Shown here: piece by piece, positions 1,347 through 32,431 of the stretch | Layout of the letters: each line of letters begins with the position of its first letter | Position numbering within the stretch: position 1 is the first letter of the stretch | Source: an uncultured bacterium | Lineage (GTDB): Bacteria; Sysuimicrobiota; Sysuimicrobiia; Sysuimicrobiales; Sysuimicrobiaceae | Assembly (NCBI GenBank): GCA_964437095.1 | Contig: CAYTFH010000001.1 | Coordinates: 119,072 to 183,071, forward strand | Direction: 5' to 3' | Length of the DNA: 64,000 nt | The notes under the pieces: model-generated | The model's database searches: none | Told to the model about the DNA's origin: nothing | Seen by the model: the letters and a program-made list of their open reading frames with translations, nothing else | Position numbers and translations under genes: made by a program

Positions 1347-2417
1347 TCAGCCTCCCCTCCACGTGGGCGGGGCGCTCACGGGCGCGGGGCAGTTCACCAC
1401 GAACAGCTCGCCCTTGGTGTCCGGCGTCCCCGGCCACCGCTTGAGCCGCCCCGCCTGCTCCTCCGCCACGATCTCCCGCTCGCTGCGCAGGACCCGGGGC
1501 CGGGCGCCGGCCTCCCACGTGAAGGTGTAGTGGTCCCAGAAGGGGCTCCAGATGGCGTCGCCGGGGTTGGAGTCGAACACGGACGGCTGGAAGCCCATGG
1601 GCCCCGGCCCCTTGATCCCGTTCCCGAACACCAGGATCTTCGCGGTCGCCCCTGCCTTGGTCAGGGCCGCCGTCTTGGGTGAGGCCGCGACCTTCATCAT
1701 GGGCGCCATGGGGGCCGCGGAGGTGTCCGTGACGATGTACCAGTGGTTGGGGAAGCACTGGTGCAGTTTGAACGTCACCTCGCGGCGGTCCACCTTGGGG
1801 TCCTCCAACAGCTGTCCGTCCCCCAGGTACTCGGTGCGCCGCCGGTCCACGGCCAACTGCCCGTCCGGCCACCGCACCATGGGGTAGTTCACCACCACCG
1901 GCGTGGACTCCACCTCCACCTGGCCCGCGCTCTGCGCGTCCCGTACCTGCTCCGCGGACCGGAGCAGCCGCGGGGAGGTCTTCCAGGTCACCCAGTGGAC
2001 CCGGTACGCGGGCGTGAAGTCGTCCCGCCCCGGGACGGTGCTGACCACCGGCAGCTGGCCCGGAGCGCCGCCTCGGAACAGATAGTAGTCCACGGTGGCG
2101 TCCTGGCGCACCGCCAAGGCCAGCTTCGGCACGAACACCAGCCCGCGCGCCTGGGCGAAGGCTTGGTCCGAGGCGTCGGTGCGGATGTGGTAGGCGAGCT
2201 TCCCGTCGAAGAAGACCGGGTGCAGGCGGAACGTCACGAAGCCGAACAGCCCCCTCCACCCCTGGGGCCGGGTGGAGAACCGCAACACGTCGCCCACGTT
2301 CTTGCGGGCTGCGGGTGCACCCCACGCCGCACCCCCTGGGAACCGGCCGCCCACGAGCGCAGCCCCGGCCAGGGCGGACCACCGCAGGAACTCCCGGCGG
2401 GTCATCCCGTACTCCAT
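1347..2417 (-). CDS. Tat-signal (twin-arginine) secreted hypothetical protein; alternative upstream in-frame GTG start at 2639
   Basis: MEYGMTRREFLRWSALAGAALVGG is a classic RR leader, preceded by a strong SD (GGGAGGAGGGGAG). The ORF continues in frame upstream to a second SD+GTG at 2639 (see finding). C-terminal domain not recognised. Confidence 0.5.
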   Translation of the reverse strand: MEYGMTRREFLRWSALAGAALVGGRFPGGAAWGAPAARKNVGDVLRFSTRPQGWRGLFGFVTFRLHPVFFDGKLAYHIRTDASDQAFAQARGLVFVPKLALAVRQDATVDYYLFRGGAPGQLPVVSTVPGRDDFTPAYRVHWVTWKTSPRLLRSAEQVRDAQSAGQVEVESTPVVVNYPMVRWPDGQLAVDRRRTEYLGDGQLLEDPKVDRREVTFKLHQCFPNHWYIVTDTSAAPMAPMMKVAASPKTAALTKAGATAKILVFGNGIKGPGPMGFQPSVFDSNPGDAIWSPFWDHYTFTWEAGARPRVLRSEREIVAEEQAGRLKRWPGTPDTKGELFVVNCPAPVSAPPTWRGG

Positions 2418-2792
2418 GGCTCCCCTCCTCCCTTCGCGCACTCGCCCGCGGTCACGCACCTTCGGTCGGTCCGCTCCGGCGTGCGCCTGCCGGTGCTCCT
2501 CGAGCCCTCGTGCGGTGAAAAACTGCACGCCGCAGCAGGACCCCACGGGTTCCCGCACGGCTCCGTGGGCTTCCACGTCGTGCCGGATCAGCTCCTCTTC
2601 GCTGGCGAACTCCCTGCCGCAGCACTGCCACTTGGCCACGTTCTCCCCTCCTTTCGGTCCACGGCTGCGCCACCCGCGTGTCGGGACGGAAGACCGCCCA
2701 CCAGGAGCCCCCAACACCACCACGGACAGCCAGAGAACCCGCATCCCCTCCTCCACCTTGCCCCGTCTCCCGCCACCGGTCCGTGAGGGACC

Positions 2793-3348: not shown

Positions 3349-3708
3349 ATGCCGGATTCGAAGTACGTGGTGTTCGTGCACGCGGGGCCTCAGGAGCTGG
3401 CGCGGGCGCTCCACGCATTGCTGTACGCGCAGGAGCTGCAGCGGTCGGGAATCCCCGCCAAGGTGGTGTTCGACGGCGCCGGGACGGTGTGGTTGCGGGA
3501 GTTCAGCAACCCCGAGCACAAGTACCACGCCGTGTTCCGGCAGGTTCTGGACGCCGGACTCGTGGACGCCGCCTGCGCTTACTGCGCCAACGCCTTCGGC
3601 GTCGCGGAGGCGGTGCGGGCCGCAGGCGTCCCCCTGGTGGGCACCGCAGAAGGGCACCCGAGCCTCGCCGCGTACCTGCGGGACGGCTGGACGCCCATCA
3701 CGCTATAA
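3349..3708 (+). CDS. DsrE/DsrF(YchN)-like sulfur-relay family protein
   Basis: SD GAGGAGGAGGTGA + ATG. Sequence MPDSKYVVFVHAGP...DAACAYCANAF is typical of DsrE-like small proteins. Confidence 0.6.
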   Translation: MPDSKYVVFVHAGPQELARALHALLYAQELQRSGIPAKVVFDGAGTVWLREFSNPEHKYHAVFRQVLDAGLVDAACAYCANAFGVAEAVRAAGVPLVGTAEGHPSLAAYLRDGWTPITL

Positions 3709-3741
3709 TTCCCGCCAGCAGCGTTCGTGGGAGGTGAGGGA

Positions 3742-4239
3742 GTGCCCGGTCCGGGCGCGTACGAGGTTACCTTCGAAGCAGAGGCACACGCCCTTGAGGG
3801 GATGCGCAAGCTGGCGGTGGTCCGGGTCCGCCGGACCGGGGGCGCTGCGGAAGCGTACACCCTCGTCTGCGACGAGGGCGCGCACCTCGGGGGGGAAGGC
3901 AGCGCCCCCACCCCCCTCACCTACTTCGTGGCCGGCGTGGCCTTCTGAATCCTGACCCAGCTCTCGCGGTGCGCGAGAGACCTCAAGGTACCGCTGGAGG
4001 ACGCCCGGGCGCAGGTGGTGGCACGGTTCCGCCGCACCGGGTCCGTCCTGCAGGGCACCGCCCGGGGGGAGTGCGCGGGCTTCGAGATCCGGGTCCGGCT
4101 GCGGTCTGAGGCCAAGCCCGAGGCCGTGCGTCGGGTGCTGCAACTCGCCCACGCCACCTGCTACACGGAGGCGTGCCTGCGCTCGGAGGTCCCCTTGGCG
4201 GTCCACCACGAGCTCAACGGGGAACCCCTGGCCCTGTAG
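3742..4239 (+). CDS. OsmC/Ohr-family peroxiredoxin-like protein with in-frame TGA (3946-3948) at the peroxidatic-Cys position; candidate selenoprotein
   Basis: Two same-frame ORFs (3727-3948 and 4015-4239) form one OsmC-like protein: ...TYFVAGVAF[TGA]ILTQLSRCARD... and ...LAHATCYTEAC... SD GGAGGTGA + GTG at 3742. Confidence 0.5.
3961..3979 (+). promoter_or_regulatory. perfect 8-bp stem/3-nt loop hairpin 12 nt downstream of the in-frame TGA (bacterial SECIS-like)
   Basis: CTCTCGCG-GTG-CGCGAGAG, read directly from the sequence; the apical loop contains G and U. Confidence 0.4.
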
Positions 4240-4249: not shown

Positions 4250-5095
4250 TCACCACAGGGCTTCCACCGGGCCCCGCTCCGGGTCTCCGAGCCGGGGGTT
4301 GGCGCGGACCCACTGCTCCGCACAGCCCGCGCCGCAGAACAGGTTGTTCACCCCGCAGCCTCCGCCCCGCACGTGCCACACGCCGGTCGGTTCGGCGCCC
4401 ACCAGCCTCCCGTCCGTCACGATCAGGCGGATCCGCCGCATGCACTGGGCACAGGCGTCGTACAGGTGGACGGTTCCCCGGTCGTAGGTCCGCCGGAAGA
4501 GGTCTTCGGGCCGCAGGCTCGCCAGGAACGCGAGCATCTTCGGGGTCATGCCGGGCGCGTCCGGGGCACCGCGCGAAGGCCTCTGGAGGCGCCTGGCCCG
4601 GTAGGTGGGGCTTGTGAGCAGCGCGAAGTCGTGGAAGCAGTTCATGTTGAACCGCTCCTTTCCGGCTACCACCTCGTGGAAGTAGAACCCTACGCCCTCC
4701 AGGAACCGCGGCGCTTCCGGGCTTAGGTGCACGTGGCTCCTGTCCCGCTCCAGGAACCCGATCCAGATCAGGGCGTCGAGGGCGGCCCGGATCCCCGCTT
4801 CCGGGAGCAAGAGGGTCTCCGAGACCCCACGGGCGAGGCGATCCTCCTCCGCCGAGCCCTGCAGGGTTCGGAGCACCCCGCGGGCCACGAGGCGCTCGTC
4901 GTTGGTGAGGAAGTAGGCCGAGGGGTGCCACCGCAGGAGGTCCGCCAGGCGAGGGTCTTCCAGGATCGCCCGGGCGATCCGGCGACGGTCGGCGTCCCGG
5001 AACGGGAGCCCCGCACGGTCCATCGCCTGCTCGAGGTTCGTGCACCGGAAGGGCTCCTGCCAGTCCGCCTCCAGGATCCGCAGCACCGCCTCCAT
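4250..5095 (-). CDS. hypothetical protein; possibly organomercurial-lyase (MerB)-like plus a C-terminal Cys cluster
   Basis: NCFHD (Cys-x2-Asp) and DACAQC about 61 aa later mirror the MerB Cys96/Asp99/Cys159 spacing. C-terminal CGVNNLFCGAGC. Weak homology, start uncertain (ATG 5095 or GTG 5122). Confidence 0.35.
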   Translation of the reverse strand: MEAVLRILEADWQEPFRCTNLEQAMDRAGLPFRDADRRRIARAILEDPRLADLLRWHPSAYFLTNDERLVARGVLRTLQGSAEEDRLARGVSETLLLPEAGIRAALDALIWIGFLERDRSHVHLSPEAPRFLEGVGFYFHEVVAGKERFNMNCFHDFALLTSPTYRARRLQRPSRGAPDAPGMTPKMLAFLASLRPEDLFRRTYDRGTVHLYDACAQCMRRIRLIVTDGRLVGAEPTGVWHVRGGGCGVNNLFCGAGCAEQWVRANPRLGDPERGPVEALW

Positions 5096-5106
5096 ACCCA
5101 CGCCCC

Positions 5107-5295
5107 TTAGCAGAAGGGACACCCGCCCCGGCGGGCTACGGCGGTTCCTTCCTCGGTGCCCGCCTCGGGGACATCCGCTTCAGGGGTCGCAGGCTCGCTC
5201 GACCCCGCCCGGGCGGCGAGGAGGAGGGCCAGGAGCTTCCCCCCGCAGCACAGCGCGATCACCCCCACGATCCCCAAACTGGTAAGCCAGTCCAT
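5107..5295 (-). CDS. small membrane protein with vicinal Cys pair in its TM helix and C-terminal CPFC (MerT/MerF-like?)
   Basis: Strong SD GGAGGTGAGAACG + ATG. MDWLTSLGIVGVIALCCGGKLLALLL...GGCPFC. Confidence 0.4.
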   Translation of the reverse strand: MDWLTSLGIVGVIALCCGGKLLALLLAARAGSSEPATPEADVPEAGTEEGTAVARRGGCPFC

Positions 5296-5309: not shown

Positions 5310-6410
<1,101 letters not shown>

Positions 6411-19386: not shown

Positions 19387-20250
19387 CTACGGCTTGGCGT
19401 CCACGGGTGCGGTGCGCTCGATGGGAGCCCCCACGAGGCTGCCCCACTCCGTCCAGCTGCCGTCGTAGTTCTTCACCTTCGGGTAGCCCAGCAGGTACCT
19501 CAGGGTGAACCACGTCAGGCTGCTGCGCTCCCCGATGCGGCAGTACGCGATCACGTCCTTGTCCGGCGTCACCCCATGCGACTCGTACAGCTGTCGCAGC
19601 TCCTCGGCAGGTTTGAACGTCCCGTCCTCCCGCACGTTCAACGTCCACGTGATGTTGCGGGCGCCCGGGATGTGCCCCGGCCGCTGGGCGCCTTCCTGAG
19701 GGTACGCGGGCGGGGCCAGGAGCTCGCCCGTGTACTCCTGCGGGGACCGCACGTCTACGAGAGCCAAGTTCGGGTCCTGCAGCCGCTGGAGGATCTCGTC
19801 CCGGAAGGCCCGCAGGGCGGGGTCAGGGTCCTTGGCCCGGAAGGTGGTGGGCGGGTACTGGGGTACGTCGGTGGCCAGGGGCCTTCCCTCCGCCACCCAC
19901 TTCTGCCGGCCGCCGTTCAGGATCTTCAGGTTCCCCACCCCGTAGTAGCTGAGCAGCCAGAAGGTGTACGTGGCGAACCAGTTGTTCTTATCCCCGTACA
20001 GGACGATGGTGTGCTCGTTGCCGATGCCCCGGGACCCCAGCAGGTGCTCCAGCTGCTCCCGGGAGATCCAGTCCCGCCGCACCGGGTCCTGCAGGTCCGT
20101 CTTCCAGCGGATGTGGATCGCACCCGGGATGTGTCCCTGGGCATACAGGTCCGGGTCCTCGTTGGACTCCACGATCCGCAGCCCCGGGTCCCCCAGGTGC
20201 TGCTCAAGCCACTGCGTCTCCACCAGCACGTCGGGGCGCGCGTAACCCAT
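19387..20250 (-). CDS. thiosulfate/3-mercaptopyruvate sulfurtransferase (tandem rhodanese)
   Basis: Two rhodanese domains; active-site [21 protein letters not shown] + ATG. Confidence 0.85.
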
Positions 20251-20450
20251 GCTCTCTCCCTCCTTCCGGTATGCGACTCACCGGTGCCGGGCCCTGGACA
20301 CACGGCACCCGGTGGCGACGGGGAGCGGAGACAGGGCTGGACTTCGCGGGCTAGCTAGCTCAAGGTGGGGCGCAGCGAAGGCAGACCCTGCCTCCGCCAC
20401 GGACAGATACAGCTGCGGGGTGCGTACCGGTAGCCTTTCATGCTGATCTG

Positions 20451-20479
20451 TTTGTACCACCTCACCTCCCCAGAGTCAA
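20451..20479 (-). promoter_or_regulatory. sigma-A-like promoter TTGACT-N17-TACAAA upstream of the rhodanese/thioredoxin block
   Basis: Read on the minus strand; leaves a ~180-nt leader before the rhodanese ATG. Confidence 0.35.
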
Positions 20480-20532
20480 CCAACCCCTGCCATGCGGCTT
20501 CCCGGGTCCCGCGCGGGTGGCCGGATTCAACG

Positions 20533-21282
20533 TCACCCGCCGCGGCCCGACACCAGCGCCACTAGCCCCAGGCACACGGTGGCGCCTGCCACCCAGCCCC
20601 GCAAGCGCGCGGAGCTCACCTCCCGTACGGTGCGGGTGCCCAGGGGGACTGCCAGCACCGCGCCGCCGGTCACCGCCAGCAACAGGTCCCACCTCCACGC
20701 ACCGGGGAACCACCACGCGTAGCTGGCCACGGCGGCTAGGGAAACCACGGCTTCCGCCAGGTTGGTGATGGCCACCGCGGCTTTGGGTTCAAGGCCCGAG
20801 ACGATCTGCCCGGCCGCGATGAGGGGGCCGTACCCGCCGCCCGTGAGTCCTTTGTTCACCGAGGCCAGGGCACCCAGGGCCACCAGCCGCCGCCACGAAA
20901 AGGCCCGGGCGGCGGGGCCCAGCAGCAGCCACACGCCCAGGGCCACGATCATGCCGGCCATGTAGGCCCGCACCGCACCTTCACCCACCTGCCGGGCCAG
21001 CCAGGGGCCGGCCAGGCCGCCCGCGAGGCCCGCGGCCACCAGCACCGCGGCGACCCGGCAGTGCGCGGAGTCCCGGCTGAAGGAGGCGTTGCCGTTCGCG
21101 TGGTGGAACCGGGCGCCCACCAGGCCCGCCATTACCTGGGAGAGGAGGAGGGCAGGGACCACCTCGGGGAGCCGGTAGCCCGCGGCCAGCAACAGCGGGC
21201 CCAGGACCGTGCCGTAGCCCATCCCCAGGGCCGTGTCCAGAAACCCCGCGGCGAACGCCAGGCCCACCAGCACCAACAGCAC
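20533..21282 (-). CDS. TauE/SafE-family sulfite/anion exporter
   Basis: Eight TM helices with the two-fold repeat typical of TauE; SD GGTGAGGGAGGAG + GTG. Confidence 0.7.
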   Translation of the reverse strand: MLLVLVGLAFAAGFLDTALGMGYGTVLGPLLLAAGYRLPEVVPALLLSQVMAGLVGARFHHANGNASFSRDSAHCRVAAVLVAAGLAGGLAGPWLARQVGEGAVRAYMAGMIVALGVWLLLGPAARAFSWRRLVALGALASVNKGLTGGGYGPLIAAGQIVSGLEPKAAVAITNLAEAVVSLAAVASYAWWFPGAWRWDLLLAVTGGAVLAVPLGTRTVREVSSARLRGWVAGATVCLGLVALVSGRGG

Positions 21283-21295
21283 GCAGGCTCCTCCC

Positions 21296-22048
21296 TCACC
21301 GCACGCCCTCCGCAGCGCGCACCGATGCCGTCTGGTCGCACAGGTCCACCACCCGTCCCACCACCAGCGTGGCGGGGGGTTCGAGCTGTGCTTCGGCCAC
21401 CCGGGGCGCGATGGTGCGCAGCGTCCCTACCACTACCCGCTGGTCCGGCAACGTCCCCCGGGAGATCACGGCCGCGGGCAGGTCCGGGTCGGCTCCTGCC
21501 TCCACCAGCTGCGCCACCACGTAGGCCAGCCGCCGCAGGCCCATGAGCACCACCAGGGTGGGCATGCGCGCCAGGACCGGCCAGTCCACCGCGGGGGAGA
21601 GGTCGCACGACTGGCCCGTGACCACCGCGAAGGCGGAGGCGTACGCCCGGTGGGTCACGGGGATCTCCGCGGACGCGGGGACCGCCACCGCCGCGGTGAC
21701 CCCGGGGATCACCTCGTACGGTACGCCCGCAGCCCGCAGGGCCTCCACCTCCTCACCACCACGGCCGAACACGAAGGGATCGCCTCCCTTCAGCCGCACC
21801 ACGCGGAGGCCGCGGCGGGCCCGGTCCACCAAGAGCCGCACGATCTCTTCCTGGGGAGTGCGGGGGCCGGAAGGGTGCTTGCCCGCGAAGATCCTCTCGG
21901 CCCGGACGGGTGCTTCTGCCACCAACGCAGGGTGCACGAGCCGGTCGTACACCACCACGTCGGCGGTCCGCACCGCCCGGAGTCCCCGCACGGTGATAAG
22001 CTCGGGGTCTCCGGGCCCCGCACCCACCAGGAACACCTTGCCCGTCAC
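21296..22048 (-). CDS. cobA: uroporphyrinogen-III C-methyltransferase (SUMT)
   Basis: GKVFLVGAGPGDPELIT...LKGGDPFVFGRGGEE; GTG overlaps the sirC stop. Confidence 0.85.
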   Translation of the reverse strand: MTGKVFLVGAGPGDPELITVRGLRAVRTADVVVYDRLVHPALVAEAPVRAERIFAGKHPSGPRTPQEEIVRLLVDRARRGLRVVRLKGGDPFVFGRGGEEVEALRAAGVPYEVIPGVTAAVAVPASAEIPVTHRAYASAFAVVTGQSCDLSPAVDWPVLARMPTLVVLMGLRRLAYVVAQLVEAGADPDLPAAVISRGTLPDQRVVVGTLRTIAPRVAEAQLEPPATLVVGRVVDLCDQTASVRAAEGVR

Positions 22049-22674
22049 GCCTCCTCCGCCAGCTCCGCGACCCGCTGCCGAGCCCGGTCCACGTGTCCCG
22101 CCCGCAGATCGTCCAGGACGCCGGAGTCCAAGATCCGGTACCACAGCGCCCGGCGGCGGTTGAAGTCCGGCACCCGGCGGGCCAGCTGCTCCCGGACCTC
22201 ACCCGCCAGCTCCAGGAAGGCCGCGTGCTCCGGGCCCAGCTGGGCCGCGAACCGGTCCCGGAGCCGCACCGCGAGAGCCGGCGCCTTGCCCGAGGTGCAC
22301 ACGGCCACCACGAGGTCCCCGTCCCGGTGCACCGCTGGCGCGATGAAGCTACAGTGCGCGGGGTCGTCCACGGCGTTGACCCAGATCCGCCGCTGCTGCG
22401 CTTCCTGCCACACCGCGTGGTTGGTCTTTCGGTCCTCGGGTGCGGAGATGACCAGCCACGCGCCCTCCAGGTCGCCTGGGCGGTACGGGCGGGACAGCCA
22501 CTGCAGCTTGCCCTCTGCGGCCCACGCCCGCAGCCGTTCGGTCACCTGACCGCTCACCACCACCACCTCCGCCCCGCACTCCAGCAGGGCTGCTACCTTG
22601 GCTTCCGCCACCGGGCCGCCGCCCACCACCACGCACCGCCGGACGCGCAGGTCCACGAACAGCGGGTAGTACAC
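22045..22674 (-). CDS. sirC: precorrin-2 dehydrogenase / sirohydrochlorin ferrochelatase
   Basis: YYPLFVDLRVRRCVVVGGGPVAEAKV Rossmann N-terminus typical of CysG-N/SirC. Confidence 0.75.
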   Translation of the reverse strand: MYYPLFVDLRVRRCVVVGGGPVAEAKVAALLECGAEVVVVSGQVTERLRAWAAEGKLQWLSRPYRPGDLEGAWLVISAPEDRKTNHAVWQEAQQRRIWVNAVDDPAHCSFIAPAVHRDGDLVVAVCTSGKAPALAVRLRDRFAAQLGPEHAAFLELAGEVREQLARRVPDFNRRRALWYRILDSGVLDDLRAGHVDRARQRVAELAEEA

Positions 22675-22684
22675 GGCTAGACCA

Positions 22685-22721
22685 CCCCAACAATCGCTCA
22701 AGCGATCTTTGGGGACCCCGG
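22685..22721. repeat. 37-nt palindromic repeat element, copy 2 (intergenic hemD-sirC)
   Basis: CCCCAACAATCGC-TCAA-GCGATCTTTGGGGACCCCGG; near-identical to the element inside the FMN reductase gene. Confidence 0.6.
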
Positions 22722-22756
22722 TCCCTTCAGCCGCCAGGGTCTTCCCGCACACGCTC

Positions 22757-23563
22757 CTACTCCCGGGCCCTGACCTGGTAGGCTCGCAGGGCATCCACCA
22801 GGGGAGCCATCTTCGGGTGGTCCGGGCTCACCGCCACCCGCACCCCACAGGCCTCCACGGCCGCGCGGCTTGTGGGCCCCACCGCGGCCACCACCACTCT
22901 CGTGTTGAGGGCCTCCCGCAGCGCTGCCGTGAGCCCCTCGTGTTCGGCCACCGCGAACAGGTGCAGGACCTGGGGCCGGCTGGTGACCAGCAGCGCGTCC
23001 ACTCGTCCTTCCACCACCGCGTGCGCGGCTCGCCCCAGGGGGCCGACGTCCTGGGGGAGCGCCCACCGGTACGGAAGCGCCTCCACCGCCTCGGCGCCGC
23101 GGCGGGCCAGGTAGTCCCGCAGGGCCGGGTTGGGCTCCCCGTAGTGCTGCACCAACACCCGCCGGCCCTCCAGCGGGACCGTGTCCAGGGCGCGGCACAG
23201 CTCCGCGGTGGTGTGGGGGCTGGGTGCCTGCACCTGCGGCCGCACGCCCCAGCGGCCCAGCACCGCCACCGGCTTGGGGCCCCGCACGGCCACGGGGATC
23301 TCCCGCAGAGCCTGGACGAAGGCTTCACCCAAGCCCAAGGTCACCGCGGCCTCGTACAGCCGCTGCACCCCCACGCCCGTGAGGAACACCGCCCAGTCCA
23401 CCTCCCGGGAGCACAGGCGCTGCAGGGGCTGAGCCACTTCGGACGCCGGCACCGCCACCTCCTCCACCGCGGGCGCGCACACGGGCTCCCAGCCCTGCTG
23501 CCGCACCAGGTCCGCCAGGACCTGCGGCCAGCGCGACTCCAGGACCAGCACCGTCCAGCTCAC
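22757..23563 (-). CDS. hemD: uroporphyrinogen-III synthase
   Basis: HemD-like two-lobe sequence; GTG overlaps the cysC stop (GTGA). Confidence 0.7.
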   Translation of the reverse strand: MSWTVLVLESRWPQVLADLVRQQGWEPVCAPAVEEVAVPASEVAQPLQRLCSREVDWAVFLTGVGVQRLYEAAVTLGLGEAFVQALREIPVAVRGPKPVAVLGRWGVRPQVQAPSPHTTAELCRALDTVPLEGRRVLVQHYGEPNPALRDYLARRGAEAVEALPYRWALPQDVGPLGRAAHAVVEGRVDALLVTSRPQVLHLFAVAEHEGLTAALREALNTRVVVAAVGPTSRAAVEACGVRVAVSPDHPKMAPLVDALRAYQVRARE

Positions 23564-24576
23564 GCCTCTCCCGAGCCCGCCTGCACGTACCCGCGCTCCG
23601 CGAGCAACCGGAGGACCTGCGCCGCACCCTCCTCGGGCGCGGTGCGGTGGGTGTCCACCACCAAGTCGGGGGACTCGGGCTCCTCGTACGGGTCGCTCAC
23701 CCCGGTGAAGTTGGGCACCTCGCCCCGCAGGGCGCGGGCGTACAGCCCCTTGGGGTCCCGCTGGACCAGGACCTCCAGGGGGCATCGCACGTACACCTCC
23801 AGGAAGTCGCCCACCAGCTCCCGCGCCTGCGCCCGTGCCTCCCGGTATGGGGAGATGAGGGCGACCAGGACCACCACGCCGTGGCGCACCAGCAGCCCCG
23901 CCACGTACGCCACCCGCCGCACGTTCTCCAGCCGGTCCTCCCGGGAGAACCCCAAGCCCTTCGAGAAGTGGCGGCGGACTTCGTCGCCGTCCAGCACCTC
24001 CACCGGCACGCCCTGGCCGCGGAGGGCCTCCGCCACCCGGTGCGCCAGGGTACTCTTGCCCGCTCCGGAAAGCCCCGTGAGCCACACGCACACCCCGCGC
24101 GCGGCCCGGGGACTCCCCTCCGTGGACAGGCTCTCCACCTCCACCCCGTCCGCCCGCGCCGCGAGGGTGACCACCAGGCCGTCTGCCCGCAGCGCCACGG
24201 TGTAGTCGCCGAGGGTGCGGGCAGCCACCCGCACTCCCTCCAGCCGGCGGCCGCGCAAGGCCTGCAGGGCGCGGTTGGTGGCTTCCAGCCTCGCCCGCAG
24301 CGCCTGGCCCCGCGGCGTGTGCCACAGCACCTCCGTGAGCAGCCGCTCACCCTCCGCCCGGTGCCGGCGCCGCGCGCGGCCGGTCTGCAGGGAAAGGGCC
24401 ACCGCGGACTCCACCACGTCCACGAACTCCGTCGCGAGCTCCCCGCGGCGGACGAGCTCCGCCGCTTGCACCGCGCGCTGCTGCTGTGGGTCGGGGAGGA
24501 CCTGGGCCAACGCCAGGACCTCCTCCGCCACCAGCGCCGCGGACTCCGGGTCCAGCTGCAAGGGCAACTCCGTCAC
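23560..24576 (-). CDS. cysC: adenylylsulfate kinase with ~150-aa N-terminal extension of unknown function
   Basis: C-terminal 190 aa: VWLTGLSGAGKST...DGDEVR...SPYREAR APS kinase. GTG at 24576 overlaps the cysH TGA (GTGA). Confidence 0.75.
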   Translation of the reverse strand: MTELPLQLDPESAALVAEEVLALAQVLPDPQQQRAVQAAELVRRGELATEFVDVVESAVALSLQTGRARRRHRAEGERLLTEVLWHTPRGQALRARLEATNRALQALRGRRLEGVRVAARTLGDYTVALRADGLVVTLAARADGVEVESLSTEGSPRAARGVCVWLTGLSGAGKSTLAHRVAEALRGQGVPVEVLDGDEVRRHFSKGLGFSREDRLENVRRVAYVAGLLVRHGVVVLVALISPYREARAQARELVGDFLEVYVRCPLEVLVQRDPKGLYARALRGEVPNFTGVSDPYEEPESPDLVVDTHRTAPEEGAAQVLRLLAERGYVQAGSGEA

Positions 24577-25370
24577 CGCCGGACCTCCTCCACGGCGTGC
24601 CCCAGGATGGCGTGCGCCTCGTGCTCGAACCCACCGGTCTCGATGGGGCAGTGGATGCCGCACTCCTTGGGCGCGCCCACCTCCCACCACCACCGGCCCG
24701 CGCGGTCGTCCTCGCCGGGCTGGATGGGGCGCGTGCACGGGTCGCACCCGATGCTGGTGTACCCGTGCTCGTACAGGGGGTGGGTGGGGACCCCGTGGGT
24801 GCGCAGGTACTCCCACACCTCCTCCTTGGTCCAGTCCGCCAAGGGGTTGGCCTTGACAATGCCGTCGTGGTCGTGGTCCAGCTCCACCTTGCGGATGTTG
24901 GCCCGCGACGCCCACTGCTCCCGGCGCAGGCCCGTGATCCACGCGTCCAGCTGTTCCAGGCCGCGCACCAGGGGCCGGACCTTCCGGACCTGGCAGCACA
25001 GCAGCCGCAGGGGCACGGACTTGTAGAACAGGTTCACCCCGTGCCGCTGGACCATGGCCTCCACCTCCCGGTGGTCCGGGAACAGCACCTGGAAGCGTGC
25101 GTGGGGGTAGTGCTCCCGCACCTGGTCCAGGAAGGCGTAGGTGGCCTGGGGCAGCCGTCCGGTGTCCACGGTGAGCACCCGGACGTCCGGGCGGATCCGG
25201 GTGGCCATGTCCAGGATGGCCATCCCTTCCGCCTGCAAGGCGGTCACCACCGCCACTCGGTCGCCGAAGGTGTCCAGGGCCCAGGCGATGACCTCCTGGG
25301 GCTCCCGGTCATCGAGCTCCACCGCGATCTCGCCGATCTCCAGGTCGTCGAACACCACCGTCCGCGCCAT
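24573..25370 (-). CDS. cysH: phosphoadenosine phosphosulfate / APS reductase (thioredoxin-dependent, C-terminal Cys cluster)
   Basis: PAPS_reduct fold, C-terminal CC...ECGIHC cluster; strong SD GGAGGAGGGAGG + ATG. Confidence 0.85.
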   Translation of the reverse strand: MARTVVFDDLEIGEIAVELDDREPQEVIAWALDTFGDRVAVVTALQAEGMAILDMATRIRPDVRVLTVDTGRLPQATYAFLDQVREHYPHARFQVLFPDHREVEAMVQRHGVNLFYKSVPLRLLCCQVRKVRPLVRGLEQLDAWITGLRREQWASRANIRKVELDHDHDGIVKANPLADWTKEEVWEYLRTHGVPTHPLYEHGYTSIGCDPCTRPIQPGEDDRAGRWWWEVGAPKECGIHCPIETGGFEHEAHAILGHAVEEVRR

Positions 25371-25435
25371 GCCTCCCTCCTCCGCCTTGGACCATCCCGG
25401 TCGTGGTGCTTTCGGGCGGTTCTTCGGACCCGCTC

Positions 25436-27358
25436 CTAGCCCGCGCCTCCCGACAGGGCGGGCAGGATGGTGAGTTCCTCGCCGGGCCGCAGGGGCGCGT
25501 CCAGGCCTCCTAGGCCCCGCACGTCCTCCTCGCCCACGAACAGGTTGATGCTGGGGTGCACGCCGCCGTCCGGCGCCAGCACGTGGGCCACCAGCTCCGG
25601 GTACTGTCGCCTGAGCGCCTCCAGAGCCTCCCGCACCGTGCGGGCGTCCACCTCCACCCGGTCCGCGCCCCCGCTGTAGGGCAGCAGCATGCCGGGGATT
25701 CGCACCACCGGGCGGCGCGGCGTCTCCTCTTCCCGTACCGCCTCGCCCAGGGCCAGGGCCCGCAGCTGGTCGTCCGTGCGGGCGTCCACGAAGTCCCGGA
25801 AGGTGCAGCCACCCTCCCGCTGCGCCCGCTCCCGCAGCCAGCCCTCCACCAGCCGGCAGACCACCTCCGTGATCCGGTCCTCCGGGATGCGGCGCAAAAG
25901 GGGCTTCCCGATGGCGGCCCGGGTGCCCAACCCGCCTCGCAGGCACACGTCGTAGGCCTCCACCCGCACGCCCTTCTCCGGGTGCACCACGGTGGTGCCC
26001 TGCAGGCCGATGTCCCCCACCCAGTGGTGGGCGCAGGCGTGGGGGCAGCCGTCGGTGTAGATCCGCAGGTCCGCCACCGCTTCCCCGAAGCGCCGCTCGA
26101 GCTCCTCCAGGATCTCCTTGAGCTTGCCCTTGGTCTCCGCCACGGAGTAGTTGCAGAACCGGTGGTCGGTGCACGCGGTGGATCGGCCGTACACCGGGTT
26201 GCGGGAGGGGTCCAGCCCCATGCGGGCGAGCTCCCGGCGCACCTCCTGCACCCGCTCCTCGGGAACCCCCGTGACGATGAGGTTCTGCATGCGGGTGAAC
26301 CGCACGTCCCCTCCGAAGGACCCCACCAGCTCCCCCAGGGCCACCAGCTGGCCACCCGTGATCCAGCCCATGGGCACGGGCACGCCCACGTACACCAGCC
26401 CCGGCTGCTTCTGCGGGTGCACGCCCAAATGGTCGGTGTCGTGGGTGGGCTCCGGCGCACGGCCATCCGCCAGCCGCCGGCCCAGGCGGGCTTCCACCCG
26501 AGCCCGTACGCCCTCGGGGCCGTAGTCGTCCACCATGAACTTGATGCGGGCCTTGGCGCGGCTGAGGCGGTAGCGCAGGTCGTCCTGCCACGTATCCGTC
26601 ACCGCCCGCAGCACCTCCACCACGCCCTCCACGGGCTCTGCGGGCACGAACACCCCCAGATCCCGGCTCAGGCGGGGCGTGGCGGAAAGCCCCCCGCCCA
26701 CCCGCACCGCGAACCCGGGGACCCCGTCCAGCACCACGCCCACCAGGGCCACGTCGTGGATCTCCGGAGCGTTGCACTGGGCGGGGCAGGCGCTGATGGT
26801 GTACTTGTGCTTGCGGGGGAGGTTGCTGTAGGCGCGGTTGCCGTAGAAGAACCGCGCCACCGCTTCTACCACGGGCCGCACGTCGAACAGCTCCGCCCGG
26901 TCCACGCCCGCCACCGGGCAGCTGGTCACGTTGCGTACCGTATCCCCTTCCCCGCCCACGGTGGTGAGTCCCGTGGCCTGCACCGCGGCCAGCACCTCCG
27001 GCAGCTGCTCCAGCCGGACCCAGTGGAGCTGAATCCCCTGGCGGGTGGTGAGCTCGCCGTAGTTGCGCCCGTACCGCCGGGCGATCTCGCCCACCCCTAC
27101 CAGCTGCGCCGGGGTAATGCGGCCTCCGGGCACCTTGATGCGCACCATGAAGGTCCCCACCTTGGGCTTGTCGTGGGTGAGGCCCCACCAGTTGAGGCGC
27201 ACGATGTCCTCCTCCGGGATGGCCTCATACCCCCGCGCGATGAGGCTTGGGAGCTCGTCCACGATGTCCAGGGGGAACTTCTCCTGCTTGAGCCGCTCGA
27301 TGGAGTTCCGCTTCAGCACCAACTCCCAGGTGGGCTCCAAGGTCACCGTCTGTGCCAT
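25436..27358 (-). CDS. sir: ferredoxin-dependent sulfite reductase (NirA/SirA type) fused to C-terminal CysO/MoaD-like sulfur-carrier domain (ends ...SGGAG)
   Basis: Two NIR_SIR ferredoxin-like and 4Fe-4S/siroheme domains (TDGCPHACAHH). Final ~88 aa RIPGMLLPYSGGADRVEV...SINLFVGEEDVRGLGGLDAPLRPGEELTILPALSGG+AG resemble M. tuberculosis CysO. Confidence 0.8.
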   Translation of the reverse strand: MAQTVTLEPTWELVLKRNSIERLKQEKFPLDIVDELPSLIARGYEAIPEEDIVRLNWWGLTHDKPKVGTFMVRIKVPGGRITPAQLVGVGEIARRYGRNYGELTTRQGIQLHWVRLEQLPEVLAAVQATGLTTVGGEGDTVRNVTSCPVAGVDRAELFDVRPVVEAVARFFYGNRAYSNLPRKHKYTISACPAQCNAPEIHDVALVGVVLDGVPGFAVRVGGGLSATPRLSRDLGVFVPAEPVEGVVEVLRAVTDTWQDDLRYRLSRAKARIKFMVDDYGPEGVRARVEARLGRRLADGRAPEPTHDTDHLGVHPQKQPGLVYVGVPVPMGWITGGQLVALGELVGSFGGDVRFTRMQNLIVTGVPEERVQEVRRELARMGLDPSRNPVYGRSTACTDHRFCNYSVAETKGKLKEILEELERRFGEAVADLRIYTDGCPHACAHHWVGDIGLQGTTVVHPEKGVRVEAYDVCLRGGLGTRAAIGKPLLRRIPEDRITEVVCRLVEGWLRERAQREGGCTFRDFVDARTDDQLRALALGEAVREEETPRRPVVRIPGMLLPYSGGADRVEVDARTVREALEALRRQYPELVAHVLAPDGGVHPSINLFVGEEDVRGLGGLDAPLRPGEELTILPALSGGAG

Positions 27359-27373
27359 CCCCCTCCCCTCCCT

Positions 27374-28534
27374 TCAGCCGGCCTGCTCCGCGGGCGGGGC
27401 CGCGAAGTACGTCCGCAACACCTCCGCCACCTCGGGCCGCATCACCTGTGGGGGCGGCAGCTGGCCGCTTCGCAGGAGCTTGCGCACCCAGGTCCCGCTG
27501 GGGTTCACCCGCGCGTCCGCGGGGTGAGGGCAGCTGCGCTCGGTGGCCATGCCGTCGCACCGGCGGCAGTAGAACGCCTCCCCGAAGAACACCGGGGTAA
27601 TCCCCAGTTCGGCCGCGTCGAAGCGGTCGAAGATGCGGTGCGCCGCGTACGGGTCGTAGAACCCGCCCACGCCCGCGTGGTCCCGCCCGATGAGGATGTG
27701 GGTGCACCCGTAGTTCTTGCGGACCACCGCGTGGAACACCGCCTCCCGCGGCCCCGCGTAGCGCATGGCGGCGGGGAACACCGCCAGGAGCACGCGGTCC
27801 TTGGGGTAGTACAGGTCCACCAACACCTCGTACGCCCGCATGCGCACGTCCGCGGGCACGTCGTCCTTTTTGGTCTCCCCCACCAGGGGGTGCAGGAACA
27901 GCCCGTCCGTGGTCTCCAGGGCGACCTTGTGCAGGTACTCGTGGGCGCGGTGGATGGGGTTACGGGTCTGGAAGGCCGTCACCGTCCGCCACCCGGCCCG
28001 CTGGAACCGCTCCCGGGTCTGGGCTGGGTCCAGCTCCCGGTCCGCCCACGGACCCCGGGGCCGGTCCACCAGCCACACCGGCCCCGCCACGGCCCACGGG
28101 GACTCCTGCAGGAGCCGCGCCACGCCCGGGTGCGCAGGGTCCGTGGTGCCGAACACCCATTGCGCTTCCTCTTCCAGGTCCCGCCGGTAGACCTCCGTGA
28201 CCTCCACCACCGCCAGAAGACCCTGCCCCCGCACGGCCAGCCGGTCCCCGCGGCCGAGCTGCCGCGCGCGGTCCGCGGGCAGCTGCAGGGTCACGGGGAT
28301 GGTCCACGGCAGGCCTCCAGGCAGCCGCAGGGTGTACAGCACCGACCGGTACGTCTCCCGGTCCATGAAGCCCTCGAGCGGACTGTACGCACCGGTGGCC
28401 AGCAGGACCGCGTCCGCGGCCTCCTTGGCGCTGGTCAGCACGCACGGCAGCCGTTGCGCTTCCGCTCTCCATGCGTCCGCTTGTTTGCCATCCACCACCC
28501 GGTGCACCAAGCGACCCCCGTGGGGTGCGACCAT
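27374..28534 (-). CDS. sat: sulfate adenylyltransferase (ATP sulfurylase)
   Basis: QTRNPIHRAHE and GRDHAGVG motifs; SD GGGAGGTG + ATG. Confidence 0.9.
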   Translation of the reverse strand: MVAPHGGRLVHRVVDGKQADAWRAEAQRLPCVLTSAKEAADAVLLATGAYSPLEGFMDRETYRSVLYTLRLPGGLPWTIPVTLQLPADRARQLGRGDRLAVRGQGLLAVVEVTEVYRRDLEEEAQWVFGTTDPAHPGVARLLQESPWAVAGPVWLVDRPRGPWADRELDPAQTRERFQRAGWRTVTAFQTRNPIHRAHEYLHKVALETTDGLFLHPLVGETKKDDVPADVRMRAYEVLVDLYYPKDRVLLAVFPAAMRYAGPREAVFHAVVRKNYGCTHILIGRDHAGVGGFYDPYAAHRIFDRFDAAELGITPVFFGEAFYCRRCDGMATERSCPHPADARVNPSGTWVRKLLRSGQLPPPQVMRPEVAEVLRTYFAAPPAEQAG

Positions 28535-28725
28535 AGCACACCTCCCACGCGCTCGCCCATGCGCTGCGCGGCGCGTCGTTCGTCTTGGAACCTTGGCTAG
28601 GGAAAAACCGGAAGCCGCGGAAGGAGCCCCGCCCGGTTCAGGCCAGGGCTACCTCCCGCCGAGGACAGATGCACTGCCGAGGGCGGGCCAGCAGGAGCGG
28701 ACGTACGACTCCGGACTCCATGGCT

Positions 28726-28754
28726 TCGCGTGACACTTTAGCCCCGCGGACGTG
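28726..28754 (-). promoter_or_regulatory. sigma-A-like promoter TTGACG-N17-TAAAGT upstream of the sat operon (~190-nt leader)
   Basis: Read on the minus strand. Leader 28535-28719 contains a GGTTTTTCC tract after GC-rich sequence. Confidence 0.4.
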
Positions 28755-29086
28755 GCGCGTCAAGAGGGGAGGCGTCGGTCCGCGAAAGCACTTCAGCCCG
28801 CGGACCGCACAGCCCGGGCCCAGTCCCGCAGCGCGGCCAGCAACTCCCGCACCCGGGCGCGGGTGGCCTCGTCCACCAGGCGCCCCTGCGCGTCGAACTT
28901 GTCCCGGGCGTGGGTAACCAGGACCTCCGGACGGTGCAGCTGCCGGGCCTCCAGCGACGCCAGCACCTGCCGCAGGTGCAGCTGCGCCCGCAGCGTGCCC
29001 CAGGCCCCCATCGTTCGGAGCACATCCGGCCATCCCCCGCGCCCACGGGGACCGGCGTCGGACGTCGTACGACTTCTCCCTGCAAA

Positions 29087-29136
29087 CCGGGGTCCCCAAA
29101 AATCGCGCCAGCGATTTTTGGGGCGCTCTAGCGCCC
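29087..29136. repeat. palindromic repeat element, copy 1 (inside the FMN reductase gene)
   Basis: CCGGGGTCCCCAAAAATCGC-GCCA-GCGATTTTTGGGG plus adjacent GGGCGCTCTAGCGCCC palindrome; AT-rich core. Confidence 0.6.
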
Positions 29137-29566
29137 ATCACCGCCACGGGCTTGCCCCGGAAGGGGTTGTCCCCCGCGGGGCGGGTGGCCCAGTCCAGCG
29201 CGTTCTTCAGCACCCCCGGGAAGGACCAGTTGTACTCCGGGGTGACCACCAGCACCGCGTCCGCGTCGCGGATTTCGCGCTTGAAGGCCACCACCGCCTC
29301 CGGGAGCCCTCGCTGCTCCACGTCCCCGTCGTACAGGGGGATGCCCCTCAGGTCGAAGGCCACCACCTCCACGTCTTCGGGGGCCACCTCCGCCGCCGCC
29401 CGCAGCAAGGCGCGGTTGTAGGATCCCTCCCGCAGGCTGCCCGCGAACCCCAAGATCTTCACTGATCCCTCACGCACGCGTGCCCCCTTCCGATTCGGGT
29501 TTACGGCGCAGCAGTGTACGCGGCTCCGCCGGGCGCGTCAAACCCTCTTGACAATTCCACGAGCTC

Positions 29567-29584
29567 TGCCGTAAACAAACGGCA
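29567..29584 (+). promoter_or_regulatory. inverted repeat TGCCGT-AAACAA-ACGGCA overlapping a putative TTGACA(29548)-N18-TAAACA promoter upstream of nirA
   Basis: Perfect 6-bp inverted repeat with 6-nt spacer, read from sequence. Confidence 0.3.
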
Positions 29585-29727
29585 AGACCACGCAGTCCGT
29601 CTGGGCCCCGCAGTTCCCTCTTCCCTGCCCCGCCGCAGTCCACCCAATAGCCGCGGAGCTCTTTCCGGCCGCGTCGCCGTGGGAACCCCGTCGTTCCCGG
29701 ACACCCCATCCGGGAAAGGAGGTCACC

Positions 29728-31608
29728 ATGGCCGAAAACAGCTCGGCGCCCAACTTCGTGGAAAGCCTCAAGGCCGCCCGGGACGGGCTGGACGTGGGCG
29801 AGGACATCCCCCGCTACGCGCGTCTGGGCTGGCAGGCCATCCCCAAGGACGACGTGGAGCGGCTCAAGTGGTGGGGGGTCTTCCTCCGCCGCCAGAGCGA
29901 GGGGGAACCCGGGTACTTCATGCTCCGGATCCGCATCCCCAACGGTATCGCCACCGCCGCCCAGGCCCGGGAGATGGGCCGCCTCAGCCGCGACCTGGGT
30001 CGCGGGGTGCTGGACGTCACCACCCGGCAGCAGGTGCAGATGCGGTGGATCCGTATGGAGAACGTCCCGGAGGTCCTGGACCGGCTGCGGGGGGCGGGTC
30101 TCACGACCCTTCAGACGGGCATGGACAACGTGCGCAACGTGGTGGGCTGCCCCCTCGCAGGGCTGCTGTCCACCGAGCTCCTGGACGCCTCCCCGGTGGT
30201 GCGGGAGCTCACCGCTCGCATCGTGGGGAACCGCGCCTACACCAACCTGCCCCGGAAGTTCAACGTGACCGTCACCGGCTGCGTGCAGAACTGCACCCAC
30301 GCGGAGACCCAGGACCTCGCCCTGGTGCCCGCCACGCGATCCCACCGCGGGTACCGTCAGGTGGGGTTCAACGTCCTCGTGGGCGGCAAGATGGGCTCCG
30401 GCGGATACCGCGTGGCCTCCCCCTTGGACGTCTTCGTCACCGAGGGAGAGGCCGTGGAGCTGTGCGTGGCCGTGGTGGAGGTCTTCCGGGACTGGGGGCC
30501 GAGGGAAGCTCGCGGCCGGGCCCGCTTGAGCTTCCTGCTGGACGCCTGGGGGGTCAACCGGTTCCGGGAAGCCGTCCAGAGGCGCCTGGGCCGTCCCCTG
30601 CTACCGGCCGGGGAAGACGCCCGTCGACCCGCTGCGTGCGACCACCTGGGCGTGATCCGGCAGAAGGAGCCCGGGCTGTACGCGGTGGGCCTGCTGGTCC
30701 CCGTGGGCCGGCTCAGGGCTGAGCAGCTGCTGGAGCTAGCGCGCCTGGCGGAGGTGTACGGAGCGGGAGAAGTCCGGTTCACCACAGGCCAGAACGTGGT
30801 GCTGCCCCACGTGCCCGAAAGCCAGCTGCAGCGGCTCTTGGAAGAACCCCTGCTGCGCGAGCTCCGGCCCGACCCTCCGCCCGCGCTGCGCGGGCTGGTG
30901 AGCTGCACCGGCACGGACTACTGCAACTTGGCCCTGATCGACACCAAACGGCGTGCCCTGGACTTGAGCCGGAAGCTGGAACCCCGAATCCACCGCCCCG
31001 TCACCGTGCACTGGTCGGGATGTCCCGCGGGCTGCGGCAACCACGGGGTGGCGGACGTGGGGCTGGTGGGCAAGAGGGTCCGGGTGGACGGCCGGGTGGT
31101 GGAGGCGGTGGACGTGTACGTGGGCGGCTGTTCTGGCCCCGAGCCGCTGCCTGCCTTGAAGCTCCTGGAGGACGTGCCGTGCGACGCCCTGGAGCCCATC
31201 CTGGAGGCCCTGATGCGGTACGGCGACTTCGAGGGGCTGCGCGCGCAGCTGCGGGCCTGGCTCCCGGGAAAACTTCTTCGATCAGGGCCCGCACCGCTTC
31301 GCGGCCCCACCGTCCCCGTATCGGAGCTCCCCGACGGGAAGGGAGTCCGGGTGCGCCTGGGGGGCGAGGAGGTGGCGGTGTTCCGATGCAACGGGACGGT
31401 GTACGCGGTGCAGGACCGTTGCCCCCACGCCGGAGCCTCCCTGGCCGAAGGCGTGGTGGACGGTACGGAGGTGATCTGTCCCGAGCACGGCTACCGCTTC
31501 TGTCTGCGCACCGGGCGCGGGCTCACGGACCCGAGCCTCTCCGTCCGGACCTTTTTCGTGCGACGGGAAGGGGAAGCCGTGGTGGTGGAAGAGTCGGAGG
31601 AGGGTTGA
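29728..31608 (+). CDS. nirA: ferredoxin-nitrite reductase fused to C-terminal Rieske-type NirD small-subunit domain
   Basis: NIR_SIR domains and siroheme/4Fe-4S Cys (SCTGTDYC, SGCPAGC). C-terminal CPHAGASLAEG...CPEHGYRF Rieske motif. SD GGAAAGGAGG + ATG. Confidence 0.85.
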   Translation: MAENSSAPNFVESLKAARDGLDVGEDIPRYARLGWQAIPKDDVERLKWWGVFLRRQSEGEPGYFMLRIRIPNGIATAAQAREMGRLSRDLGRGVLDVTTRQQVQMRWIRMENVPEVLDRLRGAGLTTLQTGMDNVRNVVGCPLAGLLSTELLDASPVVRELTARIVGNRAYTNLPRKFNVTVTGCVQNCTHAETQDLALVPATRSHRGYRQVGFNVLVGGKMGSGGYRVASPLDVFVTEGEAVELCVAVVEVFRDWGPREARGRARLSFLLDAWGVNRFREAVQRRLGRPLLPAGEDARRPAACDHLGVIRQKEPGLYAVGLLVPVGRLRAEQLLELARLAEVYGAGEVRFTTGQNVVLPHVPESQLQRLLEEPLLRELRPDPPPALRGLVSCTGTDYCNLALIDTKRRALDLSRKLEPRIHRPVTVHWSGCPAGCGNHGVADVGLVGKRVRVDGRVVEAVDVYVGGCSGPEPLPALKLLEDVPCDALEPILEALMRYGDFEGLRAQLRAWLPGKLLRSGPAPLRGPTVPVSELPDGKGVRVRLGGEEVAVFRCNGTVYAVQDRCPHAGASLAEGVVDGTEVICPEHGYRFCLRTGRGLTDPSLSVRTFFVRREGEAVVVEESEEG

Positions 31609-31609
31609 G

Positions 31610-32431
31610 ATGGCGTACGTGAAGCCGGACGAGGTGGTGCGGAGGCTGGTGGACGCAGGGGTGGCCAAGGCAGCCCTGGCAGACCGTGACCTGCTGGTGC
31701 GCGGCTTCTTCTCGGGCGCGCTGCTGGGGTTCGCCACCACCCTGGCCGCCAGTGCTTCCCTGCAGACCGGCTTCCCCCTGGTGGGAGCGGCCCTGTTCCC
31801 CGCGGGGTTCGTGATGGTGGTGCTCCTGGGCATGGAGCTGGTGACGGGGAACTTCGCCGTCCTGCCCCTGGCGGCGTGGGAACGGCGCATCGCACCCGCG
31901 CGGGTATGGAGGAACTGGGGCTGGGTCTACGCGGGGAACCTGCTGGGCGCGGCGACCTACGCCCTCCTGCTCACCGCGGCCGTGGCCCCGGACTCGGGGC
32001 TCGCGCGGCAGCTGGCCGCGGTGGCCGAGGCGAAGACGGCGGGCTACGCGAGCGTGGGAGTTGCGGGGCTGCGGGCGGCGTTCGTCAGGGCCGTGCTGGG
32101 CAACTGGATGGTGACCCTCGGTGTGGTGCTGTCCCAGAGCTCGGAGTCCACGGGCGGGAAGATGGCCGCCATGTGGCTGCCCATCCTGACCTTCTTCGCC
32201 CAGGGGTTCGAGCACGCAGTGGTCAACATGTTCGTGATCCCCGCGGGGATGTTGCTCGGCGCTCGCGTCACGGTGGCGGACTGGTGGCTGTGGAACCAGC
32301 TGCCCGTGACCCTGGGCAACCTGGTGGGCGGACTCGTGTTCACGGGGCTGGGCTTGTACGTGACCCACCGCCCCCGAGAGGCGGACGCGCGGGCACGGGC
32401 CGCGGGGCTGGGCCCCGTGGCGACCCCGTAG
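31610..32431 (+). CDS. formate/nitrite transporter (FNT) family channel
   Basis: FNT-like topology and motifs (GMELVTGNF, FEHAVVNMF); ATG immediately follows the nirA stop. Confidence 0.75.
   Translation: MAYVKPDEVVRRLVDAGVAKAALADRDLLVRGFFSGALLGFATTLAASASLQTGFPLVGAALFPAGFVMVVLLGMELVTGNFAVLPLAAWERRIAPARVWRNWGWVYAGNLLGAATYALLLTAAVAPDSGLARQLAAVAEAKTAGYASVGVAGLRAAFVRAVLGNWMVTLGVVLSQSSESTGGKMAAMWLPILTFFAQGFEHAVVNMFVIPAGMLLGARVTVADWWLWNQLPVTLGNLVGGLVFTGLGLYVTHRPREADARARAAGLGPVATP

Follow-up and report, generated by a model that had tools for sequence, protein, structure and literature searches.

A probable OsmC-related selenoprotein gene with a conserved in-frame UGA and a covarying SECIS-type hairpin in a bacterium of high G+C content

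Does the TGA at positions 3946-3948 end translation, or is it read as selenocysteine (Sec)? This question is raised by a gene of the OsmC family on the forward strand of a 64-kb stretch of DNA from an uncultured bacterium (contig CAYTFH010000001.1), the whole of which is called the window here. The gene carries a TGA in frame, a hairpin follows this codon at a short distance, and both features are conserved in a known protein family. A preliminary description of the locus had proposed a candidate selenoprotein. The comparison with homologs agrees with this, and we conclude that 3742-4239 is most probably one gene, encoding an OsmC-related selenoprotein of 165 amino acids in which Sec is inserted as residue 69 with the help of SelB and a Sec insertion sequence (SECIS). 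We put the probability of this reading at roughly 0.88; it is limited by the Sec machinery of the host genome, for which the search covered the window.

The locus consists of two open reading frames (ORFs), 3742-3948 and 3949-4239, which lie in one frame and have the TGA as their sole separator. The preliminary description had joined them into one OsmC gene, and all of its coordinates for this arrangement were confirmed. Translation would begin at a GTG at 3742, which is preceded at a distance of 7 nucleotides (nt) by a Shine-Dalgarno-like GGAGG (3730-3734, forward strand), as read directly from the sequence, and the same GTG was chosen as the start when genes were called independently on L004, a contig of identical sequence. 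The gene ends with a TAG at 4237-4239. When translated through the TGA, it gives PTPLTYFVAGVAF up to the stop and ILTQLSRCARDLKVP behind it, followed further on by AHATCYTEAC. With Sec written in, the product reads ...GEGSAPTPLTYFVAGVAF-U-ILTQLSRCARDLKVP...AHATCYTEAC..., with U-I-L-T as the motif at residue 69.

The coding character of the DNA is the same before and after the TGA. The G+C content at third codon positions (GC3) is 0.94 on both sides, and the ratio of non-synonymous to synonymous substitution rates (dN/dS) between the window and a relative (L001) is about 0.11 upstream as well as downstream. In a GC3-based screen of the window, this was the only in-frame TGA that truly interrupts a gene with a strong coding signal on both sides. 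Three others were found, one of which (27376, reverse strand) was read as the end of a gene followed by the next start in the same frame; the remaining two had a weaker coding signal on one side. The TGA is not a sequencing error, because contig L004, which was assembled independently, is 100% identical to the window across 2002 nt. A reassigned genetic code, with TGA as a sense codon, was also considered and rejected, because TGA terminates 23 of the 27 long ORFs of the window.

The protein belongs to the OsmC family, and the match to this family extends across the TGA. Pfam OsmC (PF02566, E 2.7e-12) covers residues 56-158 of a 170-amino-acid translation starting from 3727. With Cys written in place of Sec, the query matched the NCBIfam model NF041052 (OsmC_like_Se, 'OsmC-related (seleno)protein') over its full length, model positions 1-144 of 144, with 166.1 bits against a cutoff of 95 (E 4.6e-49). 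In a profile search of solved structures the closest entry was PDB 3CJE (E 5e-22, 151 residues). Residue 69 aligns with a Cys of 3CJE and with the peroxidatic Cys (Cys60) of Ohr, which places the TGA at the position of the catalytic Cys, as had been proposed. Cys140 (TGC, 4159-4161, forward strand) aligns with the second catalytic, or resolving, Cys of the Ohr structures ('AHQVCPYSNA'). Identity of the protein with Ohr itself was rejected: the NCBIfam Ohr model gave only 23.8 bits against a cutoff of 240, and the catalytic Glu50 of Ohr is replaced by Leu.

Protein databases yielded few matches, since automatic annotation ends these genes at the TGA. The full-length relatives among them have Cys at the corresponding column (VAGVAFCVLTQ). 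Two database 'proteins' start exactly one codon past the column, and their contigs contain a TGA there, with the coding sequence conserved on both sides of it. A homolog scan with one genome per species gave 80 loci. The sampling was not biased towards TGA, since Cys was obligatory in one of the two patterns used for the scan. Most of the loci came from metagenome-assembled genomes (MAGs) of Chloroflexota/Anaerolineae; Deltaproteobacteria, Binatia, Syntrophomonadaceae, Actinomycetota and the cultured Bellilinea caldifistulae GOMI-1 were also found. When the Sec column was mapped by tblastn across 90 gene copies, the codon was TGA in 80, TGC in 8 and TGT in 2. At least 90 codons follow the Sec-column codon in each of the 87 intact copies, and the partner Cys in the motif T-C-Y/F is likewise kept in all 87. 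At the position three residues past the Sec column there was Ser in 73 copies and Thr, as in the window, in 17. The preliminary description had seen the second conserved Cys in 'ATCYTEAC'. This is correct for the first Cys of that motif, Cys140, which is the one conserved in the family, but not for the second, which was present in 2 copies only.

Behind the TGA and a 12-nt spacer (3949-3960) lies a perfect hairpin, in DNA CTCTCGCG-GTG-CGCGAGAG (3961-3979, forward strand). As RNA it is a stem-loop of the bacterial SECIS type, with the 8-bp stem CUCUCGCG/CGCGAGAG and the loop GUG at 3969-3971, so that its extent, its offset and the G and U in its loop are as first described. Perfect 8-bp hairpins with loops of 3-8 nt occur 23 times on the forward strand of the 64 kb, and the chance that one of them starts 8-20 nt past a given site is about 0.005. 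The folding energy of the 71-nt surroundings (3940-4010) is unexceptional for DNA of 72% G+C (z = -0.86), and the case for the hairpin therefore rests on the comparison of homologs and not on energy.

For this comparison, the 45 nt from the TGA onward were aligned without gaps for 77 Sec forms. RNAalifold placed a hairpin at columns 18-23 paired with columns 27-32, which are the columns of the stem in the window, and recorded compensatory changes in four of the six stem pairs. In coordinates of the window, the core stem common to the family is 3963-3968 paired with 3972-3977, and the invariant G of the loop is 3969. Three distinct stem sequences were found (CUCUCGCG/CGCGAGAG, GUCGCA/UGCGAC and UUUCCCG/CGGGAAA), and these overlie different amino acids (SRCAR, SQVA and SRFG, respectively). 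The covariation score was 0.275, compared to 0.094 for shuffled columns, with none of 500 shuffles reaching the observed value, and to at most 0.086 for slid pairings. Five or six of the six stem pairs can form in 80 of 80 Sec forms, and column 24, the first base of the loop and a third codon position, is G in every one of them. In seven distant Cys forms only 0-2 of the six pairs can form, i.e. the hairpin is absent there. When a covariance model was built without the window, its one significant match in the window was the hairpin region behind the TGA (3946-3990, 31.4 bits, E 5e-8).

The window itself also bears a trace of this constraint. On the 3' arm of the hairpin, three pairs are formed by an Arg codon AGA (3976-3978, forward strand). 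Among the 821 Arg codons that the confident ORFs of the window contain, it is the only AGA. Selection on RNA pairing explains its presence best. In eight close relatives the nucleotides of the hairpin are identical, and the synonymous sites that flank it vary. The interpretation of the hairpin as a SECIS element was strengthened by its fixed offset in all 80 TGA forms, by the compensatory changes and by the invariant G of the loop. A terminator was tried as another explanation of the hairpin, and it was rejected for lack of a T-run behind the stem. Against Rfam, at gathering thresholds, the window gave no matches; to our knowledge Rfam contains no bacterial SECIS family, so this null result says nothing either way.

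The eight close relatives (L092-L099) were found by scanning metagenomes with the neighbouring gene as query. This neighbour, a DsrE-like gene (3349-3708, forward strand; Pfam PF02635, 25.6 bits against a cutoff of 22.7), lies 33 nt upstream of the OsmC-like gene on the same strand, and the two are probably co-transcribed. All eight relatives, which show about 80% identity, have the DsrE-like gene followed by the OsmC-like gene, and all eight have the TGA, the intact downstream ORF and the identical hairpin. In addition, two deltaproteobacterial MAG contigs each carry two close OsmC-related copies (L012, at 1359 and 1993; L035, at 901 and 2453), and both copies on each contig have the TGA and the hairpin.

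Several observations weigh against the interpretation as a functional selenoprotein gene. Neither the 64-kb window nor the fetched OsmC loci yielded a selA, selB or selD gene or a tRNA(Sec). The best match among the species representatives, from Ca. Thermoflexus japonica, is only 70% identical, and the source genome of the window is outside that set. The 77 aligned hairpins come mostly from one class, Anaerolineae, so that the compensatory changes represent a few lineages and not 77 independent events. In the score of the covariance model, conservation of the coding sequence contributes as well as structure. At the level of the protein, the catalytic Glu50 of Ohr aligns to a Leu (N-P-E-Q-L-F in Ohr and T-P-L-T-Y-F here; 3EER, 6MJN), and peroxidase chemistry is for this reason an analogy only. 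Other genes of the window, those for MerA, a sigma factor of the extracytoplasmic function (ECF) type and glucose-6-phosphate dehydrogenase (G6PD), are damaged, which indicates that gene decay or sequence errors do occur in this DNA. Finally, the three closest Cys forms (L005/L088, L006 and L007, the latter two refetched as L090 and L089), from the metagenome assemblies GCA_900175155.1 and GCA_900175145.1, are all broken downstream. One has an in-frame TAG after ...GFEI, and the other two have an 8-nt deletion that shifts the frame (coordinates of the broken forms: L005/L088, 1816-2056; L006, 5782-6075). These Cys forms still have most of the hairpin, which suggests that Sec was recently replaced by Cys and that the genes decayed afterwards.

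The alternative that survives best is that the gene is a selenoprotein gene by descent, the UGA of which is not decoded as Sec, either since the organism no longer has the machinery, which would make the gene a recent fossil, or since a tRNA(Sec)-like molecule recodes the UGA to Cys. It draws on the fact that the window cannot demonstrate Sec machinery. ARAGORN detected no tRNA of any kind in the window, nor a tRNA-Sec among 117 loci, and a Pfam scan of about 35 ORFs of the window found no Sec machinery. Searches by tblastn with approximate sequences of SelD and SelA of E. coli, which offer a hint rather than a test, drew a blank both in the window and among the OsmC loci; the only match was a selD-like gene on a contig with a distant DsrE-like homolog (L113). 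In addition, sister lineages swapped Sec for Cys and then lost the gene, so the use of Sec seems to be unstable in this clade. Support for Sec decoding in the host comes solely from literature on the phylum: tRNA(Sec) and SelB have been reported from Chloroflexi (PMC5389517, PMC4959059), and selenoproteins can occur in the phylum, i.e. Chloroflexi can decode Sec. A tRNA-Sec with an 8/4 arrangement of acceptor and T-stem has also been reported for Chloroflexi.

However, without the machinery translation would stop short of the second catalytic Cys, and the downstream part would be expected to decay. Instead, the SECIS element is perfect, the downstream ORF is intact, and eight relatives that have diverged by about 20% keep the TGA, the hairpin and the ORF, which argues for continuing selection for read-through. 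We therefore consider it quite unlikely that the UGA has ceased to be decoded as Sec. The variant in which the lineage of the window reads the UGA as Cys instead of Sec is likewise of low probability.

Less probable still is that the TGA reflects a nonsense mutation, or else a wrong base call, in a gene for a Cys-type OsmC protein; this would make the gene a pseudogene and leave the hairpin as a by-product of the amino acid sequence S-R-C-A-R. The Cys forms L005-L007 keep the hairpin, so the protein sequence could in part dictate it, and the damaged genes of the window (a TAG in MerA, frameshifts in the sigma factor, a frameshift in G6PD) would provide company for one more lesion. The MerA remnant (5310-6410, reverse strand) matches positions 97-381 of TIGR02053 and has a C-terminal tail ending in ...SCCAG; it is truncated at its 5' end, so that about 96 N-terminal residues, including the redox-active disulfide, are missing. 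Its TAG (5562-5564) is an ordinary nonsense mutation that relatives do not share, because each of the eight has CAG or CGG there, and the gene is a pseudogene. The ECF-type sigma factor, with a fused Cys-rich tail of anti-sigma-like type (6467 to about 7330, forward strand), is spread over three frames with switches at about 6775 and about 6930, which means two frameshifts or sequence errors. In the G6PD gene (14184 to about 15700, reverse strand) there is a frameshift near 15390, and about 100 N-terminal residues lie in another frame. The lesions in the latter two genes suggest either indel errors of the assembly or real gene decay.

The TGA in the OsmC-like gene differs from all this. Unlike the true nonsense mutation in MerA, it is common to relatives, occurring at the column in 80 of the 90 homologs and in the eight close relatives without exception, and the independent assembly is identical. 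The 96 codons downstream of it are intact and under purifying selection. The hairpin requires a very rare AGA codon, and other lineages maintain the pairing with different stems and different amino acids. A pseudogene or a sequencing error is thus largely refuted, and we regard it as very improbable. That the TGA might be a true stop in a split gene, with the two halves made as separate small proteins in the way that automatic callers annotate them (68 and 74 amino acids in L004, 61 and 99 in L001), is extremely improbable, since the window has no start codon or ribosome-binding site directly behind the TGA (the nearest in-frame start, GTG at 4015, is 22 codons further on, inside a conserved helix), the break would divide one OsmC domain precisely at its catalytic residue, and the Cys forms are single ORFs.

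Returning to the interpretation as a selenoprotein gene, a mechanism can be proposed. During translation the UGA at 3946-3948 would not be read as a stop. The hairpin at 3961-3979 of the mRNA, 12 nt past the UGA and with G in its apical loop, would serve as the bacterial SECIS element and recruit SelB-GTP with Sec-tRNA(Sec), and Sec would be inserted as residue 69. We infer this SelB-dependent decoding for the host organism. Sec69 would then occupy the position of the peroxidatic Cys of OsmC/Ohr, and Cys140 that of the resolving Cys. By analogy with those proteins, the reaction is most likely a selenol/thiol redox cycle, in which the selenol of Sec69 would react with a hydroperoxide or other electrophile and become oxidised, then join Cys140 in a Se-S bond, and finally be reduced again by a thiol donor.

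The DsrE-like neighbour had been brought forward as further context from a selenoprotein family. Its position immediately upstream and its DsrE domain were confirmed. It is, however, a Cys form: DsrE-like selenoproteins have UGA at the first position of UxxC, and the ORF of the neighbour has C-A-Y-C there and runs without any TGA. The order of DsrE-like gene and then OsmC-like gene is kept in L004-L007 and in L092-L099, and is absent in the Anaerolineae and deltaproteobacterial homologs. The pairing was for a time considered as a trait of the whole family, and this was rejected; it is limited to the clade of the window itself. Distant DsrE-like homologs have varied neighbours. In one relative (L111, 8001-8628), a DsrE-like gene 87% identical to that of the window is directly followed by OsmC-like residues 75-168 only, which is the part past the Sec codon; the N-terminal half may have been deleted, or the arrangement may be a fusion. 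A single distant DsrE-like homolog (L113, 1-1869; 45% identity), which has the same CAYCANAFG motif as that of the window, is found two genes downstream of a selD-like gene (Pfam AIRS, AIRS_C), with a HAD hydrolase in between.

Genes that may be related to mercury are found on the other side of the pair. A Cys-rich protein of 290 amino acids (4250-5122, reverse strand), which converges on the OsmC-like gene, shows a weak match to MerB, the alkylmercury lyase (E 0.021). It occurs with 59-74% identity beside the DsrE-OsmC pair and MerA in L092-L097, L099 and L100. Upstream of the pair, a protein with a twin-arginine translocation (TAT) signal and a DUF7482 domain, together with an upstream zinc-finger-like segment (1347-2792, reverse strand), is conserved beside the pair as well; the DUF7482 protein and, further on, a Crp-type regulator are 76-82% identical in the close clade.

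It is conceivable that the DsrE-like protein (CxxC) and the OsmC-like protein (Sec) form a two-protein module that acts on a soft electrophile, such as Hg(II), a persulfide or a selenium species, and that they are not a peroxidase system. This idea was raised because the pair is fixed between the DUF7482/zinc-finger genes and the MerB-like and MerA genes in the Thermoflexus-like clade, because the region of a relative also holds MerR and a heavy-metal P-type ATPase, and because one distant DsrE-like homolog with CAYCANAFG is located two genes from selD. We consider it speculative and rather unlikely.

The ORFs covered by the Pfam scan show a chromosomal region. Among them are a cluster for cell division and the cell wall, genes of sulfate assimilation, and those for ProRS, G6PD and MoeA/MobB. 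The sulfur-assimilation cluster (19387-32431) contains a tandem rhodanese, a TauE/SafE exporter, siroheme synthase, ATP sulfurylase and a formate/nitrite transporter. Two genes of the sulfite/nitrite reductase type are also present in it, one of them fused to ThiS and the other to a Rieske domain.

The selenoprotein reading has consequences for annotation. The locus should be entered as a single selenoprotein gene, with 3946-3948 marked as a translation exception; automatic callers at present report a pair of hypothetical ORFs, both in this DNA and in dozens of genomes of Chloroflexota. If the reading is correct, the host would have the Sec-decoding trait and a need for selenium. The gene provides a clean and well-controlled example, with a Sec/Cys pair and SECIS covariation, for its family. 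It also illustrates a recent replacement of Sec by Cys followed by decay of the gene in sister lineages, and it opens no new question.

How does the locus compare with known systems? The SECIS element of E. coli fdhF is a stem-loop within the coding sequence, located at a short fixed distance past the UGA, with G and U in its apical loop. The hairpin of the window likewise lies in the coding sequence at a short fixed offset from the UGA and has G and U in the apical loop. It is shorter, however: its conserved stem has 6-8 bp and its loop 3 nt (GUG, GGU or GUU), and no bulged U is evident in it. The Ohr/OsmC thiol hydroperoxide reductases (PF02566; PDB 3EER, 6MJN, 1N2F) are of the same fold family by sequence, but the similarity is low (profile E 1e-7), and the protein of the window would have Sec where Ohr has its peroxidatic Cys. 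The 'OsmC-like protein' 3CJE, which comes from structural genomics, shares the motifs DEG and PPL with it and has C-V-M-T at the Sec column; unlike the protein of the window it is a Cys form, and it has no assigned function.

The closest known system is the family of OsmC-like selenoproteins itself, which was described in 2005 from the Sargasso Sea as COG1765 proteins with the motif UxxT, in the same study as the DsrE-like selenoproteins with the motif UxxC (Zhang et al., PMC1088965, Table 3). Reviews of 2022 and 2026 include both, with OsmC-like UxxT and DsrE-like UxxC proteins among the selenoprotein families in PMC13188914, so the preliminary description was right to call them known selenoprotein families. 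The protein of the window has the same domain and the same position of Sec as the OsmC-like selenoprotein family (Zhang, Fomenko, Gladyshev 2005; COG1765/YhfA-type; NF041052). Its U-I-L-T is a form of UxxT, and UxxS/T was found in 90 of 90 homologs. Common to both are, in addition, the SECIS hairpin with G in its loop behind the UGA and the existence of Cys homologs. Whereas the family was first described from marine metagenomes, the copy in the window belongs to an organism of 72% G+C related to Thermoflexus (Chloroflexota), has a DsrE-like partner and is located beside mer-type genes. There is no essential difference between the two, and the gene truly belongs to a selenoprotein family for which a description and a curated model exist already.

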